From the NCBI GenBank assembly GCA_964583075.1, contig CAZOUW010000002.1, positions 5,915 to 69,914 on the forward strand: 64,000 bases of DNA, read 5' to 3'. A model generated the notes under the pieces. That model saw only the letters and a program-made list of their open reading frames with translations, did not search any database and had not been told where the DNA came from. Positions 31,755-38,932 of this stretch are shown in pieces. The translations under genes and the position numbers were made by a program. This DNA comes from an uncultured Candidatus Saccharibacteria bacterium (GTDB lineage: Bacteria; Patescibacteriota; Saccharimonadia; Saccharimonadales; JAGQNJ01). Position 1 is the stretch's first letter. Every line of letters starts with the position of its first letter.

Positions 31755-31934
31755 ATCAACCGTGATTATGCTTTTATAACAAGCATTGTAACGTAAACCA
31801 TAAAATAATAATACACAGTGAAAACTTAACAATAAAACCCCCTGAAAAGGAGGCCTGTTGTGTTGGTGGACCTAACCGCGCAGCAACTGAAACAGGGACC
31901 CCTAAGGACCCCTGCTGTTTCAAGTAACAACTAT

Positions 31935-32220
31935 TTGGTGCCTCTATACGATGAGGTTAGAACCTATTTTATCTCAAAAAGCTGAAAAGCGAGAACCTAA
32001 GCTCAGCCCTGCTGCCTTGCGGGCAAGTCTGCCCGTTGCGCCCCGCCAGAAAACCGCCTTTGAATTTTTAGATTTTCCCGCCGTTCCTTATTTTTCTAAA
32101 TGAAAAGTCGGTATTTTTGTCGGTTCGCCTGCGCATAGCGCAGAAGTGGCTGGGGCTTGGCTGGTTAATATTACAAGTATGTGCGTTAGATCACTCACAG
32201 TGTTTTTAAGTATTTTTGTT
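31935..32220. repeat. IR1-L: 286-bp inverted repeat, exact reverse-complement of 36194..36479
   Basis: A manual reverse-complement comparison of this stretch (ggtgcctctatacgatgaggttagaacc...cagtgtttttaagtatttttgtt) against IR1-R found no mismatch. Its outer end is ttggtg. Confidence 0.9.
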
Positions 32221-32661
32221 GGCTTTTTTATGCCGTCGGATTTCTATGAACGTAAGTGCCGTAATGACCAGGAAAGACAAAAAAGACATAAAAGGAATAG
32301 TGATAAAACCAAACCAGTTAATCTGCGGTACGGCACAAGAACTATCTATTGAACAAGTTTTAATTGCTTCTTCTATTATGCCCCATTGTAAGAGTGAATG
32401 GTAGAAAGCGATCATCGATCCGACAAGGCTAAGCGGCAACACATAATAGGCCGCATTATTGTCTTTACGGTAAACACCGACACCTAATATAAATGCGAGT
32501 GGAAACATAAATATCCTTTGATACCAACACAAGGCACACGGTACCAAATCCATCACCTCACTAAGCACCATACTGCCTAGTGAAGCCCCGATTGCTACTA
32601 GCCAAGCAATAAAAACCAAATTATTTAAAAACAAAGTATGTATTTGTTTCGTTTTAATCAT
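32206..32661 (-). CDS. disulfide bond formation protein B (DsbB/BdbC family, quinone-dependent thiol oxidase)
   Basis: The internal start MIKTKQIH gives 151 aa. There are 4 TM helices, a CALCWYQR motif in periplasmic loop 1 and a second Cys pair (CSIDSSCAVP). The longer ORF 32206..32718 overlaps the upstream gene. Confidence 0.75.
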   Translation of the reverse strand: MIKTKQIHTLFLNNLVFIAWLVAIGASLGSMVLSEVMDLVPCALCWYQRIFMFPLAFILGVGVYRKDNNAAYYVLPLSLVGSMIAFYHSLLQWGIIEEAIKTCSIDSSCAVPQINWFGFITIPFMSFLSFLVITALTFIEIRRHKKANKNT

Positions 32662-32674
32662 ATATTTTATTCTA

Positions 32675-33847
32675 CTATTGTTTGCAGACTGGACAAACTT
32701 CTTCCTCGACAAACCCATACCGCCAGGTGATTAAAGCCTTCCGCAGTGGAAGAAATGATAGATATAATTTGAAGTCAGCCAACCGTCTTAATAGCCACCC
32801 TAACCGTCCATAGATACGAACCTTCCCCCACAGTACTGCAGCCCAATGCGGACCGACTGGGATAGCATAAATTGGGCGTTTCGGTTTATAACTATATAAG
32901 GTTTGTCTTTTCGATTTTCTAAGCAAGTTTTCTGCAACAAATTTTGCATCGTGAATTGCGGTCTGCGCCATACCAGCGTAGGTAGTCGAGGCACTGTCGC
33001 CAATCACATAGATATTTTGGTTAGCTTGGAGAAATTGATCTACCTCAACTCGACCTGACTTACCTTGCCTAAACAGTTTTCCAGATTGACTAAAAAATGG
33101 GTTATTGACTACTCCCGCTGTCCATATAACGGTATGTGACTTGATCGGTCCTCTAGGTAAGTAAATGCCATCGAGTGTCTCTGATTTAACTGATGCTTCC
33201 AGCTTAGTCTTTACGCCCACCTTTTTAAGCCGATTTAGAACGTCAGTCGAAAAATCTTCTGGCATTGAAGCAAGAACCCTAGGAGCAGCTTCAACTAAAT
33301 TAACCGTAAAAGGGGCTTTTATCTTGTGCTTTTTTCGTATCTTTTTTAGATATGCTACCAGTTCAGCACTGAGTTCCACGCCGGTTGCTCCAGCTCCGAT
33401 CACCACATAATTTCTTTCCGTCTCTGTAGCCAACAACTGTTCATGCATATGGCGTTTTAGCTGTAATGCTTCGTGAACCGTCTTCACACCGTAAGAGAAC
33501 CTCTCAAGCCCCCTGATATTATAAAATTCGGTCACATTACCCAACGCTAGTATCAGCTCCTCATATGTATACTTCGAGCCTGATTCGCCTGAAATAAACT
33601 TTTTTTGTTTGTCGATTGTTGTAACTGTGTCCTCAATTACCTCAACATTTTTTGCATAAGCAAAAAAATCACGCAGCGGTATGGCTACTTCTAGTGGCGA
33701 ACGTCCAGTAGCTGATCGATACAGCGCAGCGTGATACTCAAAATAACTCTGGCTAGAAATCAATTTTACTTCCACTCCTGATTTATTCGACAAGGATAAT
33801 GCAGCTCGTACACCACCAAACCCGCCGCCAACAATAACGACCTTCAT
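32675..33847 (-). CDS. ndh: type II NADH:quinone oxidoreductase (NDH-2) / FAD-dependent pyridine nucleotide-disulfide oxidoreductase
   Basis: 390 aa with two Rossmann GxGxxG motifs (VVIVGGGFGGVRAA; VVIGAGATGVE) and NDH-2-like architecture. Confidence 0.8.
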   Translation of the reverse strand: MKVVIVGGGFGGVRAALSLSNKSGVEVKLISSQSYFEYHAALYRSATGRSPLEVAIPLRDFFAYAKNVEVIEDTVTTIDKQKKFISGESGSKYTYEELILALGNVTEFYNIRGLERFSYGVKTVHEALQLKRHMHEQLLATETERNYVVIGAGATGVELSAELVAYLKKIRKKHKIKAPFTVNLVEAAPRVLASMPEDFSTDVLNRLKKVGVKTKLEASVKSETLDGIYLPRGPIKSHTVIWTAGVVNNPFFSQSGKLFRQGKSGRVEVDQFLQANQNIYVIGDSASTTYAGMAQTAIHDAKFVAENLLRKSKRQTLYSYKPKRPIYAIPVGPHWAAVLWGKVRIYGRLGWLLRRLADFKLYLSFLPLRKALITWRYGFVEEEVCPVCKQ

Positions 33848-35506
33848 TTAAAAACTCTTTCTGATGTGGATTTGCGAAAACTCCAAACTAGCATCGGTTT
33901 TTTTGTGTGGATTAAATATGTTATCAGGATCAAACAGTTTCTTCACAGTTTTGAATATCTGCATCATTTCTGGAGAGTACATATACTCAAGCATCGGACC
34001 ACGTATCATACCGTCGTTATGCTCACCAGATAACGAGCCATTGTATTGTAATACCAAATCCGTAACCTCTTCGAGAGCTGGATATATCTTGTGTCTTTCG
34101 GATTCAACACGTAAATCCATTAGTGGGATGATATGGAAATTTCCATCTCCCATATGCCCAGCAACGGTGTAAAGCAATTTATATCGCTCTAATATTTCGG
34201 TTAAGCGTGGTAAAAATTCAGGTAGCGTTTCCGGAGGTACTATCAAGTCATCAATAAAAGGGGCGGTGTGTTTACGTTTAACGTTTTTTCTAAGCAAGTT
34301 AAAGCTTTCTCGGCGCATTGTCCAAAACTTCTCTTCCTGATGCCTATCTTCGGCCAATTGGGTCTCAATGTTCTTACTCTGCATCATCTGTTGTAACTGA
34401 TGTATCTTTCTGTCTATTTCATTTTGTTCTGTAGCTTCAAACTCGCACAAGAGGATTATTTTTGGAAAACTGGGCAAAAACCGAAGTAAATGTTTTAAAA
34501 CTGGTAAGAAACTTAAGCCAAGTAATATAAACCGCTTCCAACCTAAAGTTTTACGAAAACTAAAGAAAAACCTGAAAGCAAACTTGAGTGTATGGTCGTC
34601 AAACGACTCCAAACTTGTTGGCCTCATTGGCAATATATCGTTAATTATTTCACCGAGTCCATCGAGATTTTTTAGAAAAATCACTACCATCCCCGAGAGT
34701 GGCTTAGCCGGAACAAGCCGAAAAGTAGCTTCAGTTATTAGACCCAGTGTACCCTGAGAGCCAACGATGATCTTTGTCATGTCAAACGCTTCTCCGTCCC
34801 AAACATCCCAAATATTGTAAGCAGTTGAGTTTTTGCTGACCTTGGGCTTTGATGCCTTAATTATTTCTTGATTTTCCGTGACCAATTTATAAATCCCACG
34901 GTATAAATCGCCTTCTAAACCAGTCTCGTTTAACTTTTGTTTCAATGTTTTTTTATCAATAGCTTGAAATGTATGCTCTTTGCCGTCTCTCAGCACAATC
35001 TTGACCTGTTTTACATACCGATCTGTTTTGCCATATATCAGAGATTTTTCACCGCCAGCATTGTTTGCCACCATACCACCGATCATACATAAATCTTTTG
35101 ATGCGGGATATGATGGCATTATTAACCCCTGCTCCAATGTCTTGGGTTCAAAATCACGATAGTAAACGCCAGGCTGTACGGTAACTTCATTATCTTTGAT
35201 TTGCCCAACCTGTGTAAAGTAGCGCCCATATGCCACGATAATAGACTCGTTAATAGCTCCGCCGGACATATCTGTACCGCCGCTGCGACCAGTCAGTGAA
35301 AGATCAGGGTGCGATAGTTTATTCTTAGACACATGTTCTACTAGGTTGCAAATGTCTGTTACGTCTCGTGGATAAGCTATTGCTTCAGGTTTAATCTCAA
35401 ACAAACTGGCGTCGTGGCTATATAAACCACGCGCATGTCTATCTACTTCTATATTGCCCTTGAAAAATCTTTTGATGTCCTCGTGGAGGTGGGTAAATTT
35501 ACCCAT
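33848..35506 (-). CDS. FAD-linked oxidase (FAD_binding_4 + FAD-oxidase C-terminal domains; GlcD/D-lactate dehydrogenase-like)
   Basis: 552 aa with TGRSGGTDMSGGA in the PCMH-type FAD-binding domain and a C-terminal FAD-oxidase domain. Confidence 0.7.
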   Translation of the reverse strand: MGKFTHLHEDIKRFFKGNIEVDRHARGLYSHDASLFEIKPEAIAYPRDVTDICNLVEHVSKNKLSHPDLSLTGRSGGTDMSGGAINESIIVAYGRYFTQVGQIKDNEVTVQPGVYYRDFEPKTLEQGLIMPSYPASKDLCMIGGMVANNAGGEKSLIYGKTDRYVKQVKIVLRDGKEHTFQAIDKKTLKQKLNETGLEGDLYRGIYKLVTENQEIIKASKPKVSKNSTAYNIWDVWDGEAFDMTKIIVGSQGTLGLITEATFRLVPAKPLSGMVVIFLKNLDGLGEIINDILPMRPTSLESFDDHTLKFAFRFFFSFRKTLGWKRFILLGLSFLPVLKHLLRFLPSFPKIILLCEFEATEQNEIDRKIHQLQQMMQSKNIETQLAEDRHQEEKFWTMRRESFNLLRKNVKRKHTAPFIDDLIVPPETLPEFLPRLTEILERYKLLYTVAGHMGDGNFHIIPLMDLRVESERHKIYPALEEVTDLVLQYNGSLSGEHNDGMIRGPMLEYMYSPEMMQIFKTVKKLFDPDNIFNPHKKTDASLEFSQIHIRKSF

Positions 35507-35516
35507 TGATTACCTC

Positions 35517-36056
35517 CTATTCGAGTATTGGAAATCGTTTGACCAAAGACTGTTTAACCCACCAGCTCCGCAAACCCCAAACCTGTCTGTCATTTGCAGC
35601 TAACAAGCCCAGTAAGACCACGGAGTAAATGACGTGATCGTCTATAATCGGGTTATTTTCAGGTAATATCATTGCCGACCACATCATCATAAACAGCAAT
35701 ACCCCTGAGATTGTTGCTATTCTCATACCGATACCGGCTATTAGTGCAAACCCAATAAGCAAAAGTCCTGCCATAAACAGTACATCAACAAAGGTATTGC
35801 CAGCTAAGCCCTGATAGAAATCAGCAAATGGTCCCTTAGTAGCAAATTCTAAGAATCCAGTGGTTGGTGAACCACCGTTTATCCAAGCTTTTTCACATAA
35901 CATAGTTACAGTATTAGTTTCGGCATCTCGACAGGTAGCGAAGCCTAGGCCAAGCAGCTTATCGAAAAATGCCCACAACAGCGTGAATCCGAGTAAAATA
36001 CGAGCCATTGCCCAGAAGTATGGTGATTTATCATTTGTTGAATTTTGTTTTGCCAT
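35517..36056 (-). CDS. DoxX-family membrane protein (quinone-interacting, TQO small-subunit-like)
   Basis: 179 aa with about 4 TM helices. RILLGFTLLWAFFDKLLG is a DoxX-like N-terminus. Confidence 0.6.
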   Translation of the reverse strand: MAKQNSTNDKSPYFWAMARILLGFTLLWAFFDKLLGLGFATCRDAETNTVTMLCEKAWINGGSPTTGFLEFATKGPFADFYQGLAGNTFVDVLFMAGLLLIGFALIAGIGMRIATISGVLLFMMMWSAMILPENNPIIDDHVIYSVVLLGLLAANDRQVWGLRSWWVKQSLVKRFPILE

Positions 36057-36193
36057 ATTAATCCTTGCTTAACGTTAACGCTTATCTATAGTAAGTATAG
36101 CTTCAGAAGCTTTTATATTCAAGATTCAAGTGCTGGGCAGAGCCATTAATAACCACTTACTTTATAGCGCTAACTCTGACTGTTAGAGTGCTT

Positions 36194-36479
36194 AACAAAA
36201 ATACTTAAAAACACTGTGAGTGATCTAACGCACATACTTGTAATATTAACCAGCCAAGCCCCAGCCACTTCTGCGCTATGCGCAGGCGAACCGACAAAAA
36301 TACCGACTTTTCATTTAGAAAAATAAGGAACGGCGGGAAAATCTAAAAATTCAAAGGCGGTTTTCTGGCGGGGCGCAACGGGCAGACTTGCCCGCAAGGC
36401 AGCAGGGCTGAGCTTAGGTTCTCGCTTTTCAGCTTTTTGAGATAAAATAGGTTCTAACCTCATCGTATAGAGGCACCAA
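36194..36479. repeat. IR1-R: 286-bp inverted repeat, partner of 31935..32220
   Basis: Perfect reverse-complement match to IR1-L. Its outer end ...gaggcaccaag fuses directly to IR2-L. Confidence 0.9.
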
Positions 36480-36610
36480 GAAAGTACTAAAATCGGAATT
36501 GCGGCGCAAATGCGCCGTTTTTTCTTTGGTTGCGCGAAGCGCCAACCAAGGATTTTTCAGAGGGGGAGAAATATTTGGGGCGGCCGCTGGCTGCGCCTTC
36601 TTGGATTTTA
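36474..36610. repeat. IR2-L: inverted copy of tRNA-Leu 3'-flank, its terminator, and the recombinase 3' end (partner 38155..38295)
   Basis: Sequence caccaagaaagtactaaaatcggaattgcggcgcaaatgcgccgttttttctttggttgcgcgaagcgccaaccaaggatttttcagagggggagaaatatttggggcggccgctgg is the reverse-complement of 38155..38295 with about 3-4 mismatches at the distal end. It includes an orphan hairpin+T7 terminator at 36503-36524 on the plus strand. It encodes a 75-aa minus-strand ORF (36429..36656) that mirrors the recombinase C-terminus. Confidence 0.85.
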
Positions 36611-36643
36611 GACCGCCATTGGTGGTTTTTGCTATACTGGAGT

Positions 36644-36726
36644 TGGACACAATCAAAGCGGAATAGCTATTTTAATTGGCTCAGATAGCCGTCTCGTACA
36701 ATTTGGTTATTCCGGATTGTGTCCAG
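36644..36726. promoter_or_regulatory. 12-bp inverted repeat pair (ttggacacaatc ... gattgtgtccag) upstream of the recombinase gene; candidate operator/recombinase binding site
   Basis: 11/12 match, separated by 59 bp, ending about 30 bp before the recombinase ATG. The palindrome aatagctatt also lies between them. Confidence 0.3.
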
Positions 36727-36757
36727 CGAGGCGGCTATTTGAGTTCAAGGGGGTGTT

Positions 36758-38503
36758 ATGAGTAAGTGGTACACTTATGCTAGAAAATCAACAGACGTTG
36801 AAGATAAACAAGTTTTATCCATTGAAGCACAATTGGTTGAACTCCGGGAGTTTGCCAAGCGAGAGGGTTTAGATATAGCCGCCGAGTTTGTCGAGAAACA
36901 ATCCGCTAAAAGTCCAGGTCGTCCGGTTTTTGGCAAATTACTGACTGAAATTGAAAAATCTGGCGGTAATATACTCGCTTGGCATCCAGACAGGCTTGCC
37001 CGCAATTCCATTGACGGCGGACAGATTGTCTACTTACTGGACAGTGGCAAGCTGGACAACCTGAAGTTCCCGTCATTTTGGTTTGAAAATACTTCTCAAG
37101 GCAAATTTATGCTGAGTATTGCTTTTGGTCAAAGCAAATACTATGTAGACAATCTGTCCGAGAACACCAAGCGTGGACTTCGCCAAAAAGTCCGAATGGG
37201 ACTTTATCCGGGCTGTGCGCCCGTTGGATATATAAATGATGTCCGCAGTAAAAGCATTGTCATAGACAAACGGCTTGCGCCGGTTGTTGTTTCCGCTTTT
37301 GAGCTGTATGCCAAAGGCGAGAGCCGGCTGGAAGATATTGCAGTTTTTCTTAAAAGCAAAGGCGTTGCCACCAAAAGCGGCAAACAACTAAGCAAAGACC
37401 AGATCAAACGGATATTGACCAATCCGTTTTACTACGGACACTTCAAATTCTTAGGCGAAGTCCACGAGGGCAAGCATAAACCAATTGTGCCTAAAAAACT
37501 GTTTGACCAAGTACAAACAGTTTTAAGCCGTAGAGGGCGACCACAAAAAGGAAAAACCACCCCGCAAATCTTTTGCGGTTTGCTGGCCTGCGCTTCTTGC
37601 GGATTATCCGTAACTGGCGAGCACAAAATAAAACGTCAGAAAAATGGCAATATCCATGAGTATATTTATTATAGGTGCACCAAAAAGCGCAAAGATTTCA
37701 AATGCTTAGAACCTGCTGTTACCCAAAGTGATTTAACAGAGCAATTATCTAGCTTATTGACTGAATATGCCATGCCAAAGGCATGGGCCAGCAAACTTGA
37801 AGCTATGCTTCAAGAAGATGAAAAGGAAGTCAACCAAACTGTTTCAGTGTTTGTAGCTAACGCCCAAACACGACTTGTTAGTTTGCAAGGTAAACTCCAG
37901 CGACTTTTAGATGGTTATTTAGACCAAGACATTGAGCAAAGTGTTTATCGAGCTAAACAAGCTGGGTTGATGTCCGAGAAAAAGTCGCTGGAAGAGCAAG
38001 TCAGCAAACTCACGCTTGCCGGAAGCAGTTGGATAGAACCTATGCGCCAATGGATAAAACAGGCTGTTTCAAACGGTGAAACAGCCAAAAAAGCCGAGCC
38101 AAGTGCCATAAAGGAAGCACTAACTAAAATGGAAGGATTGAACCTATTTCTAAAATCCAAAAAGGCACGGCCAGCGGCCGCCCCAAATATTTCTCCCCCT
38201 CTGAAAAATCCTTGGTTGGCGCTTCGCGCAACCAAAGAAAAAACGGCGCATTTGCGCCGCAATTCCGATTTTAGTACTTTCTTGGTGGGCGAGAAAGGAC
38301 TTGAACCTTCACGCCTTGCGGCACTAGTTCCTAAGACTAGCGTGTCTACCAATTCCACCACTCGCCCACGATACCAAATTGTTAAATACCGATGTATTTT
38401 ACCCTATGCGACGGTAAAATACCAGTGTCGAATCGCCATACTCTTTCTTTGTCCTCAAATTAAAACCCTCGCCAAGATTCACTTCGACATCTGGTGGAAG
38501 TGA
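36758..38503 (+). CDS. large serine recombinase (resolvase catalytic domain + recombinase domain + zinc ribbon); 3' ~350 nt of ORF reads through att-like repeat and antisense tRNA-Leu
   Basis: 581-aa ORF. The N-terminus YARKSTDVEDKQ...LAWHPDRLARN carries the serine-recombinase catalytic Ser and Arg motifs. Recombinase-domain and Cys4 zinc-ribbon motifs (CGLLACASCG...YYRC) follow. The C-terminal part after about aa 465 overlaps IR2-R and tRNA-Leu and is probably not native coding sequence. Confidence 0.8.
   Translation: MSKWYTYARKSTDVEDKQVLSIEAQLVELREFAKREGLDIAAEFVEKQSAKSPGRPVFGKLLTEIEKSGGNILAWHPDRLARNSIDGGQIVYLLDSGKLDNLKFPSFWFENTSQGKFMLSIAFGQSKYYVDNLSENTKRGLRQKVRMGLYPGCAPVGYINDVRSKSIVIDKRLAPVVVSAFELYAKGESRLEDIAVFLKSKGVATKSGKQLSKDQIKRILTNPFYYGHFKFLGEVHEGKHKPIVPKKLFDQVQTVLSRRGRPQKGKTTPQIFCGLLACASCGLSVTGEHKIKRQKNGNIHEYIYYRCTKKRKDFKCLEPAVTQSDLTEQLSSLLTEYAMPKAWASKLEAMLQEDEKEVNQTVSVFVANAQTRLVSLQGKLQRLLDGYLDQDIEQSVYRAKQAGLMSEKKSLEEQVSKLTLAGSSWIEPMRQWIKQAVSNGETAKKAEPSAIKEALTKMEGLNLFLKSKKARPAAAPNISPPLKNPWLALRATKEKTAHLRRNSDFSTFLVGEKGLEPSRLAALVPKTSVSTNSTTRPRYQIVKYRCILPYATVKYQCRIAILFLCPQIKTLAKIHFDIWWK
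38155..38295. repeat. IR2-R: partner of 36474..36610; spans recombinase 3' end, tRNA-Leu terminator and tRNA-Leu 3' terminus
   Basis: Near-identical inverted copy. Its outer end ...gtactttcttggtg corresponds to the complement of the tRNA CACCA 3' end. Confidence 0.85.
38236..38258 (-). terminator. Rho-independent terminator downstream of tRNA-Leu
   Basis: Hairpin ggcgcaaatgcgcc followed by TTTTTT on the minus strand, about 25 nt after the tRNA 3' end. Confidence 0.55.
38283..38367 (-). tRNA. tRNA-Leu (anticodon TAG), 85 nt including encoded CCA
   Basis: Manual fold: acceptor GGGCGAG/CTCGCCC, U8, 3-bp D-stem GTG/CAC with GAATTGGTAGA loop, anticodon stem CTAGT/ACTAG with loop CTTAGGA (anticodon TAG), a long 13-nt variable arm, and T-arm GAAGG-TTCAAGT-CCTTT, followed by ACCA. 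Confidence 0.85.
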
Positions 38504-38932
38504 TATAACCACCATACCCCCTAGTTTGGTACATTGTGATACTTTCTGTACCCGGGTAATGCTTACATCGTCATACGGCGGGTCACACACAACAATATCA
38601 AAGTATTTGTCGGGGTTATTATCTATCCAAGAAGTTATGTTCGCTCGAGTTACCTTCAATGACGCGTCCAGATTTTTAGAATTTGTGCTGATTACCTCAG
38701 AAGCCTTCTTGTCTGAATCTATTGCAACCACGCCCACAGCTCCCCGACTAATTGCTTCAAGGGCAATCGCACCACTTCCACTATAAGCATCTAGCAGGGT
38801 CAGGCCAGATATATCACCCAGTATATTAAAGATCGCTCCACGCATCTTTTCGCTCATTGGGTGAGTTTTATGCCCACTTGGAGAGTCAAAAGTTCTGCCA
38901 CCTAACCTGCCAGCAATAACCCTCAATCTCAC
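38399..38932 (-). CDS. rsmD: 16S rRNA (guanine966-N2)-methyltransferase RsmD
   Basis: 177 aa with a SAM-binding motif LDAYSGSGAIALEA and the DPPY catalytic motif. Confidence 0.8.
   Translation of the reverse strand: MRLRVIAGRLGGRTFDSPSGHKTHPMSEKMRGAIFNILGDISGLTLLDAYSGSGAIALEAISRGAVGVVAIDSDKKASEVISTNSKNLDASLKVTRANITSWIDNNPDKYFDIVVCDPPYDDVSITRVQKVSQCTKLGGMVVISLPPDVEVNLGEGFNLRTKKEYGDSTLVFYRRIG

Follow-up and report, generated by a model that had tools for sequence, protein, structure and literature searches.

A pair of perfect inverted repeats, each 286 bp long, brackets a four-gene cassette in the genome of an uncultured Candidatus Saccharibacteria bacterium (assembly GCA_964583075.1, contig CAZOUW010000002.1; positions below are those of the 64,000-nucleotide stretch that we analyzed, hereafter termed the window). 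These repeats are very likely the two copies of the P arm of an attachment site that belongs to a 6.35-kb integrative element, inserted by a large serine recombinase at the 3′ end of a tRNA-Leu(TAG) gene. A comparable pairing of two inverted repeats recurs in about a hundred related elements of the ultra-small Patescibacteria. The element is not an insertion sequence (IS) or a miniature inverted-repeat transposable element (MITE), nor is it an assembly artefact or a recent duplication.

Two Inverted Repeats Share a Six-Nucleotide Core

Repeat searches and direct comparison of positions 31935-32220 (the distal A arm) with positions 36194-36479 (the proximal arm, A′) confirmed that the two are exact reverse complements, with 286 of 286 nucleotides matching and no mismatches. 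The arms are separated by a spacer of 3973 nt, similarity ends sharply at each arm edge, and a perfect inverted match of this length cannot arise by chance in 64 kb. Self-comparison of the window, which had been proposed as a check, reproduced the inverted match and returned only these two copies. As the original prediction held, the repeat is unlike an IS or a MITE, carrying neither a transposase nor terminal repeats of its own, and the cassette between the arms indeed comprises four open reading frames (ORFs), all on the minus strand. That reading had overlooked an adjacent serine recombinase gene, a second inverted repeat, a tRNA gene, and crossover sites at the outer tips of the arms.

The second repeat is formed by the B arm (36474-36612) and its inverted copy B′ (38149-38287). 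It is 139 nt long with 136 of 139 positions matching (the mismatches lie at 36592, 36594, and 36600), overlaps the right A arm by the 6 nt CACCAA, and encloses the large serine recombinase gene, here called int, beside tRNA-Leu. The int frame (36758-38503, plus strand, 581 codons) contains a conserved YxRxS near the N-terminus and the Resolvase (PF00239, residues 5-148), Recombinase (PF07508, 174-259), and Zn_ribbon_recom (PF13408, 272-328) domains of Pfam, all above their cutoffs. Its best match in the Protein Data Bank is the C-terminal domain of the A118 serine integrase (4kis, 6dnw; E 6e-11), and its best NCBIfam matches, all sub-threshold, are to CcrB, XisF, CcrC, and CcrA. By domain content, the int product is thus classed as a large serine recombinase. 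A promoter-like site for int (36609-36638, plus strand; TAGACC-18-TATACT with an upstream TG), supported by a pattern match and by alignment, is located just inside the inner end of the B arm.

The presumed integration target, tRNA-Leu (anticodon TAG; 38283-38367, minus strand), was identified by ARAGORN and by Rfam (RF00005, 58.4 bits), and its 3′-terminal CACCA lies inside the crossover core. The int frame has no stop codon of its own at this boundary, but passes through the B′ arm and the core, runs antisense through tRNA-Leu, and enters the 3′ end of the neighboring gene. There it overlaps an RsmD-like methyltransferase gene (38399-38932, minus strand) by about 100 nt. As the frame lacks a stop at the core and continues through 38283-38503, gene callers report an inflated recombinase of 581 amino acids (aa).

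Aligned in the sense of the tRNA, the three arm-end junctions read tRNA-Leu 3′ end-CACCAA-B (J3), A-CACCAA-B (J2), and A-CACCAA-host flank (J1). J2 and J1 have 286 nt in common on the left side, J2 and J3 have 139 nt in common on the right side, and only the 6-bp core is common to all three. Such a pattern is the signature expected of site-specific recombination. Under this assignment, J1 (core at 31935-31940, where the plus strand reads TTGGTG, or CACCAA in the tRNA sense) would be a junction of the attR type between host flank and A arm, and J3 (core at 38282-38287) a junction of the attL type between the B′ arm and the tRNA-Leu 3′ end. J2 (36430-36520, plus strand), in which the A′ arm meets the B arm at the CACCAA of 36474-36479, would represent a complete attP residing inside the element, inverted relative to J1 and J3. 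The 286-bp repeats accordingly read as duplicated P arms of the attachment site, one at the left end of the element and one at the internal attP.

The element so delimited extends from 31935 to 38287 (6.35 kb), consists of a cargo module between the A arms and an int module between the B arms, and has the same base composition as its flanks. Excision through J1 and J3 would be predicted to yield a circle in which two identical 431-bp attP regions, in inverted orientation, lie between two unique segments. In the host flank, about 80 nt past J1 in the tRNA sense, a terminator-like hairpin detected by pattern scan (31835-31856, minus strand) is a candidate for the original tRNA-Leu terminator, which the insertion would have displaced.

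The Same Architecture Recurs in Related Elements

Homologues of int number in the thousands at 50-80% identity, nearly all of them about 515-570 aa long, and at least 550 matches to the family occur in species-representative genomes. We retrieved 78 loci from species-representative genomes and 80 from metagenome contigs, with one contig present in both sets, and analyzed them by self-BLAST, tRNA search, and motif search. A few redundant loci may remain in the resulting counts. In at least one case the motif classifier erred, taking a tRNA-like 3′ half for an A arm (L162), and this call was corrected by eye.

A B repeat of at least 100 bp is present in 79 of the 87 complete int copies with enough flanking sequence (median 137 bp, 99.3% identity). 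In 81 copies, the B arm is immediately preceded by an A-arm motif, and the int 3′ end adjoins the 3′ end of a tRNA gene. Among such copies with at least 9 kb of upstream sequence, 32 of 34 possess an A repeat of 101-360 bp (median 179 bp, with a median identity of 100%), which encloses 0.9-8 kb of cargo. The target tRNAs represent 29 isoacceptors, and one example resides in a complete curated genome (CP064994.1, L027). The int module itself is uniform, with an arm of about 135 bp and a unique part of 1530-1570 bp, leaving no room for a second gene. Most hosts belong to Candidatus Saccharibacteria, and others to Nomurabacteria, Paceibacterota, Moraniibacteriota, Magasanikbacteria, and Uhrbacteria. 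A few loci lie in bins labelled Gammaproteobacteria, Spartobacteria, Syntrophaceae, and Bdellovibrionales; these labels are probably binning errors.

This distribution bears on the perfect identity of the arms, which had originally been attributed to a very recent duplication, to gene conversion, or to active inversion. The last two are the right kind of explanation, as cargo is found flipped in another strain and between two relatives (see below). A very recent duplication is not supported, as about 80 elements share the two-repeat design although their recombinases have only 52-79% identity to that of the window. Because the design is common to so many divergent elements, the duplication must be old and its copies held identical. 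Corresponding arms differ by 3-20% between related elements, and the near-perfect identity within each element, given an old duplication, requires ongoing homogenization.

Two loci are unusual in their tRNA genes. At L077 (9689-11604), the int module lies between convergent tRNA genes, in the order tRNA-Arg (plus), B, int, B′, tRNA-Leu (minus), with arms that are 87.6% identical. This arrangement looks like the dead-end product of recombination between an internal attP and a second tRNA gene, with inversion of the intervening chromosome. At L162 (2020-2080), the int 3′ end is followed by a tRNA-like 3′ half, comprising T-arm and acceptor, and then by unrelated sequence. This tRNA, which ARAGORN does not call, may contain an intron or be disrupted; group I introns in tRNA genes of Patescibacteria have reportedly been the subject of a paper.

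Anatomy of the Crossover Sites and Contents of the Arms

In all 30 relatives that we dissected by hand, the three junctions match the pattern seen in the window. The core, taken as the overlap between A and B arms, is 3-10 bp long in these elements, always falls over tRNA positions 72-74, and matches the discriminator region and the start of the CCA of each element's own target tRNA. The A arm ends in a conserved stretch of ~28 nt, AATAGGTTCGAGC-N6-GTAAAA-N3-core, in which the arm tip ATAGGTTCGAGC mimics the T-arm sequence GGTTCGA of tRNA. The distance from this T-arm-like motif to the CCA is 26 nt in the attP of 66 of 81 elements (23 nt in 14), as compared with 22 nt in 72 of 74 tRNAs. For the LI/A118 integrase, a motif common to both site types is located several bases further out in attP than in attB, and this difference distinguishes the two; an offset of 26 versus 22 nt is therefore expected between attP and attB half-sites.

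On the host side of J1 there is no conservation among the dissected elements, and near-identical int genes are joined to tRNA-Leu and to tRNA-Val with unrelated sequence downstream. For both reasons, target recognition appears to be one-sided, resting on the tRNA half plus the core. Two tandem arrays, L042 (7639-14955) and L104 (1200-10340), are arranged in the order cargo-int-cargo-int-tRNA at a single tRNA gene and contain hybrid junctions of the form A2′-core-B1. In L104, int is intact in the distal element, where it reads into an A arm, and degraded to a remnant next to the tRNA. The hybrid junctions are consistent with those expected if a second element enters an occupied tRNA-core-B junction, which probably stays a usable target, and they show the cores to be the points of exchange.

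Alignment of 150 nt on each side of the internal attP from 30 elements reveals that both arms are conserved well past a 25-bp half-site, and the terminal ~150 nt of the A arm are retained in the same position across the family. Inwards from the core, the B arm contains a half-site and three hairpins, the first GC-rich and trailed by a T-run, the second separated from the third by a G-run, and the third with a T-run of its own. Several base pairs of these hairpins are maintained through two-sided changes in the alignment. Beyond the B arm lies a further hairpin and, where the promoter-like site for int sits in the window, a TGnTAAAAT promoter-like site in the relatives. The first GC hairpin and its T-run occupy positions 36501-36518 in the B arm and, on the other strand, positions 38260-38243 in B′, and these terminators point into the int module from both ends. 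The copy in B′, on the minus strand directly 3′ of tRNA-Leu, is by its position the terminator that would end the tRNA transcript.

The outer ~45 nt of the distal A arm comprise the recombinase half-site and, on the plus strand, the last 14 codons of int (PLYDEVRTYFISKS) and a stop codon, and the remainder of the arm contains GC hairpins. That such hairpins occur in the repeat had been noted at the outset, and one of them, gggcaagtctgcccg, is kept across the family with compensatory changes. Folding with RNAalifold recovered this short conserved hairpin but did not capture a longer stem, and an Rfam scan, likewise suggested originally, yielded the tRNA as the sole match in the window at the gathering threshold and nothing for the A arm at E ≤ 1. 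The longer stem, observed by eye, would pair, for example, CCACCAGAAAACACCC with GGGTTTTTCTGGTGG across a loop of ~55 nt that contains TTCGGCGGGGG (36300-36400 in the window), and in an alignment of about 20 A arms it exhibits two-sided changes between elements L026, L034, L039, L056, and L064. It could represent a structured RNA or a platform for protein binding. Three GGCGGGG-like boxes also recur in the A arm.

Integration Is Predicted to Exchange the 3′ End of the Recombinase Gene

The absence of a stop codon at the end of the integrated int gene has a counterpart at the internal attP. The final 46 conserved codons of int are encoded twice, on the reverse strand of the B arm and, in the gene itself, by the B′ arm. 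On an excised circle, the int frame would cross the B arm and the core and enter an A arm. Reconstructed in this way, the frame reaches a stop codon 12-16 codons past the core in 76 of 81 elements, at a distance of 13-14 codons in 71 of them, and the resulting tail is conserved as x[FLI]Y[ND]xARTYFxxxx followed by the stop. In the window, this spare 3′ end is a 75-aa ORF (36429-36656, minus strand) that duplicates the last 46 int codons within the B arm, crosses the core into the A arm, and ends in FSTFLVPLYDEVRTYFISKS, with tail and stop position conserved family-wide. Of 120 database homologues, 17 end in exactly the A-arm-encoded tail. The remainder mostly continue into the antisense strand of a tRNA, giving the motif ...GLEPxR.... 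The native form of the protein is about 525 aa long and ends in FLVPLYDEVRTYFISKS. Within the 90%-identity cluster of the window int, no version with the native tail occurs, only the tRNA-Leu and tRNA-Val forms. The reading frame and its conservation place the natural int stop codon in the A arm, from which it follows that integration would swap the natural tail for read-through antisense to a tRNA.

Independent Assemblies, Relocation, and Inversion

Exact-protein look-ups retrieved public contigs of the same locus that are 99.9-100% identical to the window. One sample yielded a scaffold that terminates precisely at position 36194, where A′ has its inner end, and a further scaffold that coincides with the 3973-bp unique segment 32221-36193; a third begins 55 nt inside the A arm. 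In other assemblies, contigs L013 (36299 to 30591) and L021 (37203 to 34620) cross the arms in the arrangement seen in the window. The A repeat is real in several independent assemblies, and it breaks them. The warning that repeats of this kind put assemblies at risk was thus well founded, as A and B repeats interrupt public contigs of this locus and of its relatives. Among the contigs L026-L186, very many have an edge at the arms, starting 100-900 nt upstream of int or stopping at the int 3′ end.

Clustering at 90% identity places int with a single other protein, of 522 aa. In the contig encoding this protein, which derives from another metagenome, a 99.8% identical A′-B-int-B′ block is joined by the same core to tRNA-Val(TAC) in an unrelated gene neighborhood, and the contig stops at the inner end of A′. 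By this comparison, the int module has been joined to a different tRNA gene in a different genome.

Two comparisons point to inversion of the cargo. In contig L024, the left flank (97% identical) and the A arm (100%) are followed by the DoxX end of the cassette in place of its DsbB end, as would be the case if the cargo module is flipped in a different strain. Between L034 and L039, the int modules are colinear (85% identical), and the homologous cargo and arm are reversed (88% over 798 bp). The B arms of this pair are 97% identical and their int genes 85%, suggesting either slower evolution of the arms than of the recombinase or exchange of arms among elements.

Alternative Explanations

Inverted repeats beside a recombinase gene also call to mind a phase-variation switch, in which a recombinase of the Hin/Gin type, or a fim-like system, would flip the four-gene cassette to turn its expression on and off. 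A serine recombinase gene does adjoin the repeat-flanked segment, and the cassette is known in both orientations. However, the whole operon and its promoter-like site (36122-36094) lie inside the flipped segment and the arms are identical, so inversion would alter no promoter-gene or coding relation of the cargo. The opposite orientations are moreover seen only between strains or elements, in assembled contigs, and not within one population, and the cargo is wholly different between elements, leaving no common function to be regulated. The enzyme is an integrase-type protein of more than 500 aa rather than an invertase of about 190 aa, and the arm tips have the character of attL, attP, and attR at a tRNA gene, with the int module found at another tRNA as well. 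A phase switch is thus very unlikely. We regard as very unlikely, too, a model in which the arms are functional boundary modules, such as terminators, insulators, or half-sites, kept alike by selection with no recombination between them and no relevant inversion. Such a model would accommodate the conserved terminators that face inward from either end of the int module, including the one for the tRNA transcript, and the greater conservation of arms than of int between elements (97% versus 85% for L034 and L039). Selection, though, would not yield 286 of 286 matching positions within an element while arms differ by 3-20% between related elements. Nor would it account for A-arm inner ends that vary (101-360 bp) and in the window reach the stop codon of a cargo gene, as is typical of conversion tracts, or for a cargo orientation that differs between relatives.

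Two simpler explanations seem to us extremely improbable. An arm, or the order of the segments, might be the product of a misjoin or of a collapsed or duplicated repeat: the assembly is of the metagenome type, with the same proteins also encoded by contigs from NCBI (82.8 kb), ENA, and Logan, and repeats of this length do break short-read assemblies. Against this, at least four independent assemblies fit a single graph (the 3973-bp scaffold, the contigs that end at arms, and the bridging contigs L013 and L021), the unique segments are each traversed once and so do not form a fold-back contig, and the same architecture occurs with other sequences at about 80 loci, including one in a complete curated genome. 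The A repeats might instead be an independent small repeat (a MITE, an IS remnant, or a REP-like sequence) or a chance recent inverted segmental duplication, as their non-coding, GC-hairpin-rich, and perfectly identical sequences would allow. Yet they occur as just two copies in the window with no terminal repeats or transposase of their own, their outer ends coincide to the base with the crossover core, their terminal ~150 nt are kept in place across the family, and the duplication is common to elements with recombinases down to 52% identity.

The interpretation of the repeats as arms of a large serine recombinase element, which we favor, has to be set against several observations that count against it. 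An empty target site, in which tRNA-Leu would be joined to the left flank (GTCCTTTCTCGCCCACCAA to ATAGTTGTTACTTG), was not found among contigs carrying the flank genes: contigs with the left-flank gene all also have the A arm, and those with the right-flank gene end in or at the tRNA or diverge there (L009). Because no empty site was recovered, we infer insertion from the logic of the junctions and from the tRNA-Val copy. No contig with the terminal overlap of an excised circle was found, and the order int, B′, A, cargo, A′ in L106 and L181 is as compatible with a tandem array of the L104 kind as with a circle. Excision by canonical large serine integrases depends on a directionality factor, and none is evident in this family: the cargo modules (95 ORFs) hold no conserved candidate, such factors being unrecognizable by homology. 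Large serine recombinase elements as known have one attP of about 50 bp and no long repeats, in contrast to the second, inverted attP and the identical arms of 100-360 bp seen here. With respect to inversion, the contig with flipped cargo, L024, has a coverage of only ~2× and may be a repeat-induced misjoin, although the comparison of L034 with L039 is independent of it, and the flipping agent could be either the int recombinase or RecA. Finally, int has its 3′ end at the tRNA in 91 copies and is reversed in just two or three (L049, L093, L077). Since equal use of the attP sites or free flipping would leave about half of the copies reversed, inversion of int must be rare, transient, or counter-selected.

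Contig L009 (850-1041), rejected as a candidate for the empty site, encodes an identical RsmD protein and the same 5′ part of tRNA-Leu but diverges at the core into a different sequence and has an altered acceptor strand. Its acceptor 3′ strand reads CATCCCCACCA in place of CTCGCCCACCA, with the loss of two acceptor-stem pairs, and the sequence past CACCAA contains a terminator hairpin. It might represent another variant, or another element at the same tRNA.

A Proposed Mechanism for Integration and Module Inversion

We propose that the int recombinase inserts the element at the tRNA-Leu 3′ end, with the cargo and int modules each enclosed within its own inverted repeat. The arms would be homogenized by recombining with one another, through RecA-type gene conversion and perhaps also through int-catalyzed exchange at the cores; conversion of the RecA type would be sufficient for perfect repeats of 140-290 bp. 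The inner ends of the A arms, variable among elements and reaching 15 nt into the DsbB stop region in the window, agree with this view. Crossovers between arms would invert the modules. Two other routes were considered and dropped. A single-stranded hairpin attP like that of CTX phage, or integration of linear DNA, would with a serine recombinase leave hairpin-capped or broken chromosomes, and generation of the repeats anew at each insertion is at odds with the uncorrelated divergence of A and B arms.

Since attP spans the int stop codon, integration would cost the gene its natural 14-residue tail and place it convergent with a strongly transcribed tRNA gene, an arrangement that can be thought of as "off" and that corresponds to the orientation with the int 3′ end at the tRNA found in ~97% of copies. 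Inversion of the int module between the B arms would reconnect int with the native 3′ end kept in reserve at the internal attP, giving an "on" arrangement. The tRNA-core-B junction would still be target-like and the internal A′-core-B junction a full attP, so that no directionality factor would be needed for int, or for RecA acting at the B arms, to turn the int module around and regenerate the same two types of site each time. In arrays, the same sites would let int and cargo modules be inverted, reassorted, and released. The notion that the internal inverted attP constitutes a self-resetting, recombinase-only switch and shuffling system is the functional reading that we prefer, but a tentative one, which we consider possible but doubtful; module inversion, resetting of the int 3′ end, and module reassortment are each candidate roles for this site.

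Comparison with Known Systems

By its enzyme and the logic of its junctions, the element would be placed with the integrative elements of large serine recombinases, as an unusual variant. Like the phiC31, Bxb1, and A118 prophages, SCC/CcrAB, Tn4451/TnpX, and fdxN/XisF, it combines resolvase, recombinase, and zinc-ribbon domains with crossover at a short core, hybrid junctions that each retain one attP arm, and a motif located further out in attP. It departs from known serine elements in targeting tRNA 3′ ends, in its apparently one-sided recognition, in an int stop codon located across attP, and in its lack of phage genes.

The predicted circle, with two identical inverted repeats (431 bp here) that contain the recombinase site and permit inversion isomers, resembles the yeast 2-micron plasmid and its FLP/FRT system. 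FLP, however, is a tyrosine recombinase, and the 2-micron plasmid is an autonomous replicon that uses inversion for copy-number amplification, whereas the window element has a serine enzyme and no replication function, is integrated, and has not been observed as a circle. With Hin/Gin/Cin, the Rci shufflon, and intragenic invertons the element shares inverted repeats flanking segments beside a recombinase gene and several sites with a common arm and core. As in the Mu G segment and the PilV shufflon, one repeat (B′) lies within a coding region, such that inversion would swap the 3′ end of a gene. Those invertases are small serine enzymes (tyrosine in the case of Rci) acting on sites of 26-34 bp, in contrast to the integration junctions found here and a gene end that is the recombinase's own. 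The Hin/Gin architecture of about 190 aa with a C-terminal helix-turn-helix is not that of int, which has a 581-aa ORF and integrase-type C-terminal domains.

In the SSV1 integrase and in integration-dependent immunity of mycobacteriophages, attP lies in the 3′ end of a gene and integration changes the C-terminus; these systems employ tyrosine integrases and have no spare inverted end. The predicted loss by int of its natural 14-codon tail and stop codon is similar, with the window element adding the spare copy at 36429-36656. The tycheposons of Prochlorococcus are likewise small cargo elements at tRNA genes of streamlined genomes, with arrays at the same tRNA and diverse accessory metabolic genes (bioRxiv 10.1101/2020.12.28.424599). 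Among them, 910 of 937 use tyrosine recombinases and many carry replication genes, and the term "inverted repeat" occurs in that paper only in the reference list (bioRxiv 10.1101/2020.12.28.424599).

Cargo Genes

The window cargo reads leftward from a promoter-like site (36122-36094, minus strand; a pattern match) that lies within the invertible unique segment. Gene 1 (35517-36056, minus) encodes a 179-aa hydrophobic protein with no Pfam or NCBIfam match, which is DoxX-like by our own reading only. Gene 2 (33848-35506, minus) encodes an FAD-linked oxidase resembling GlcD and D-2-hydroxyacid dehydrogenase (PF01565, PF02913), and gene 3 (32675-33847, minus) a pyridine-nucleotide-disulfide oxidoreductase, an NDH-2-like flavoprotein (PF07992, E 4e-40); the NCBIfam matches of both fall below cutoffs. 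Gene 4 (32206-32718, minus), whose stop codon lies 15 nt inside the A arm, encodes a disulfide oxidoreductase of the DsbB/BdbC type (PF02600, E 6e-16; NCBIfam NF002849, 131 bits against a cutoff of 124). Together (32206-36056), the genes form a redox set of a DsbB-type protein, an NDH-2-like flavoprotein, an FAD-linked 2-hydroxyacid oxidase or dehydrogenase, and a small membrane protein, which looks like a small quinone-linked module. Saccharibacteria are generally described as lacking a respiratory chain, and quinone-linked cargo is thus unexpected there.

All-versus-all BLASTP of the cargo from 30 elements left 73 of 95 ORFs as singletons and revealed no gene common to the elements. Pfam matches include NUDIX hydrolases (7), methyltransferases, pyruvate phosphate dikinase, inositol monophosphatase, glyoxalase, HIT proteins, a HaeII-type restriction-modification pair, alanine racemase, and leucyl-tRNA synthetase, among others. 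Searches of Pfam and NCBIfam detected no phage genes in the cargo of the family and no replication gene in that of the window. A phage origin was rejected, as the best match among 2.9 million viral contigs (IMG/VR) is 30% identical and the cargo is of a redox or metabolic kind.

Implications

Our full-text literature search, whose coverage was incomplete, found no published description of the double-inverted-repeat architecture or of this recombinase family in Patescibacteria. For assembled genomes of this group (candidate phyla radiation, CPR), the practical consequence is that A and B repeats are recurrent contig breaks in CPR bins, that cargo orientation is untrustworthy without long reads, and that pieces of elements may be mis-binned. 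If inversion or reversal works without a directionality factor, the system would bear on the control of direction in serine integrases and might find use in genome engineering. The genomes of Patescibacteria are tiny, yet this recombinase family is abundant in them, and the elements described here seem to be a main vehicle for small accessory genes in these organisms. Shuffling of modules within arrays, if it takes place, would account for the spread of hundreds of unrelated small cargos across Patescibacteria by a single recombinase family.

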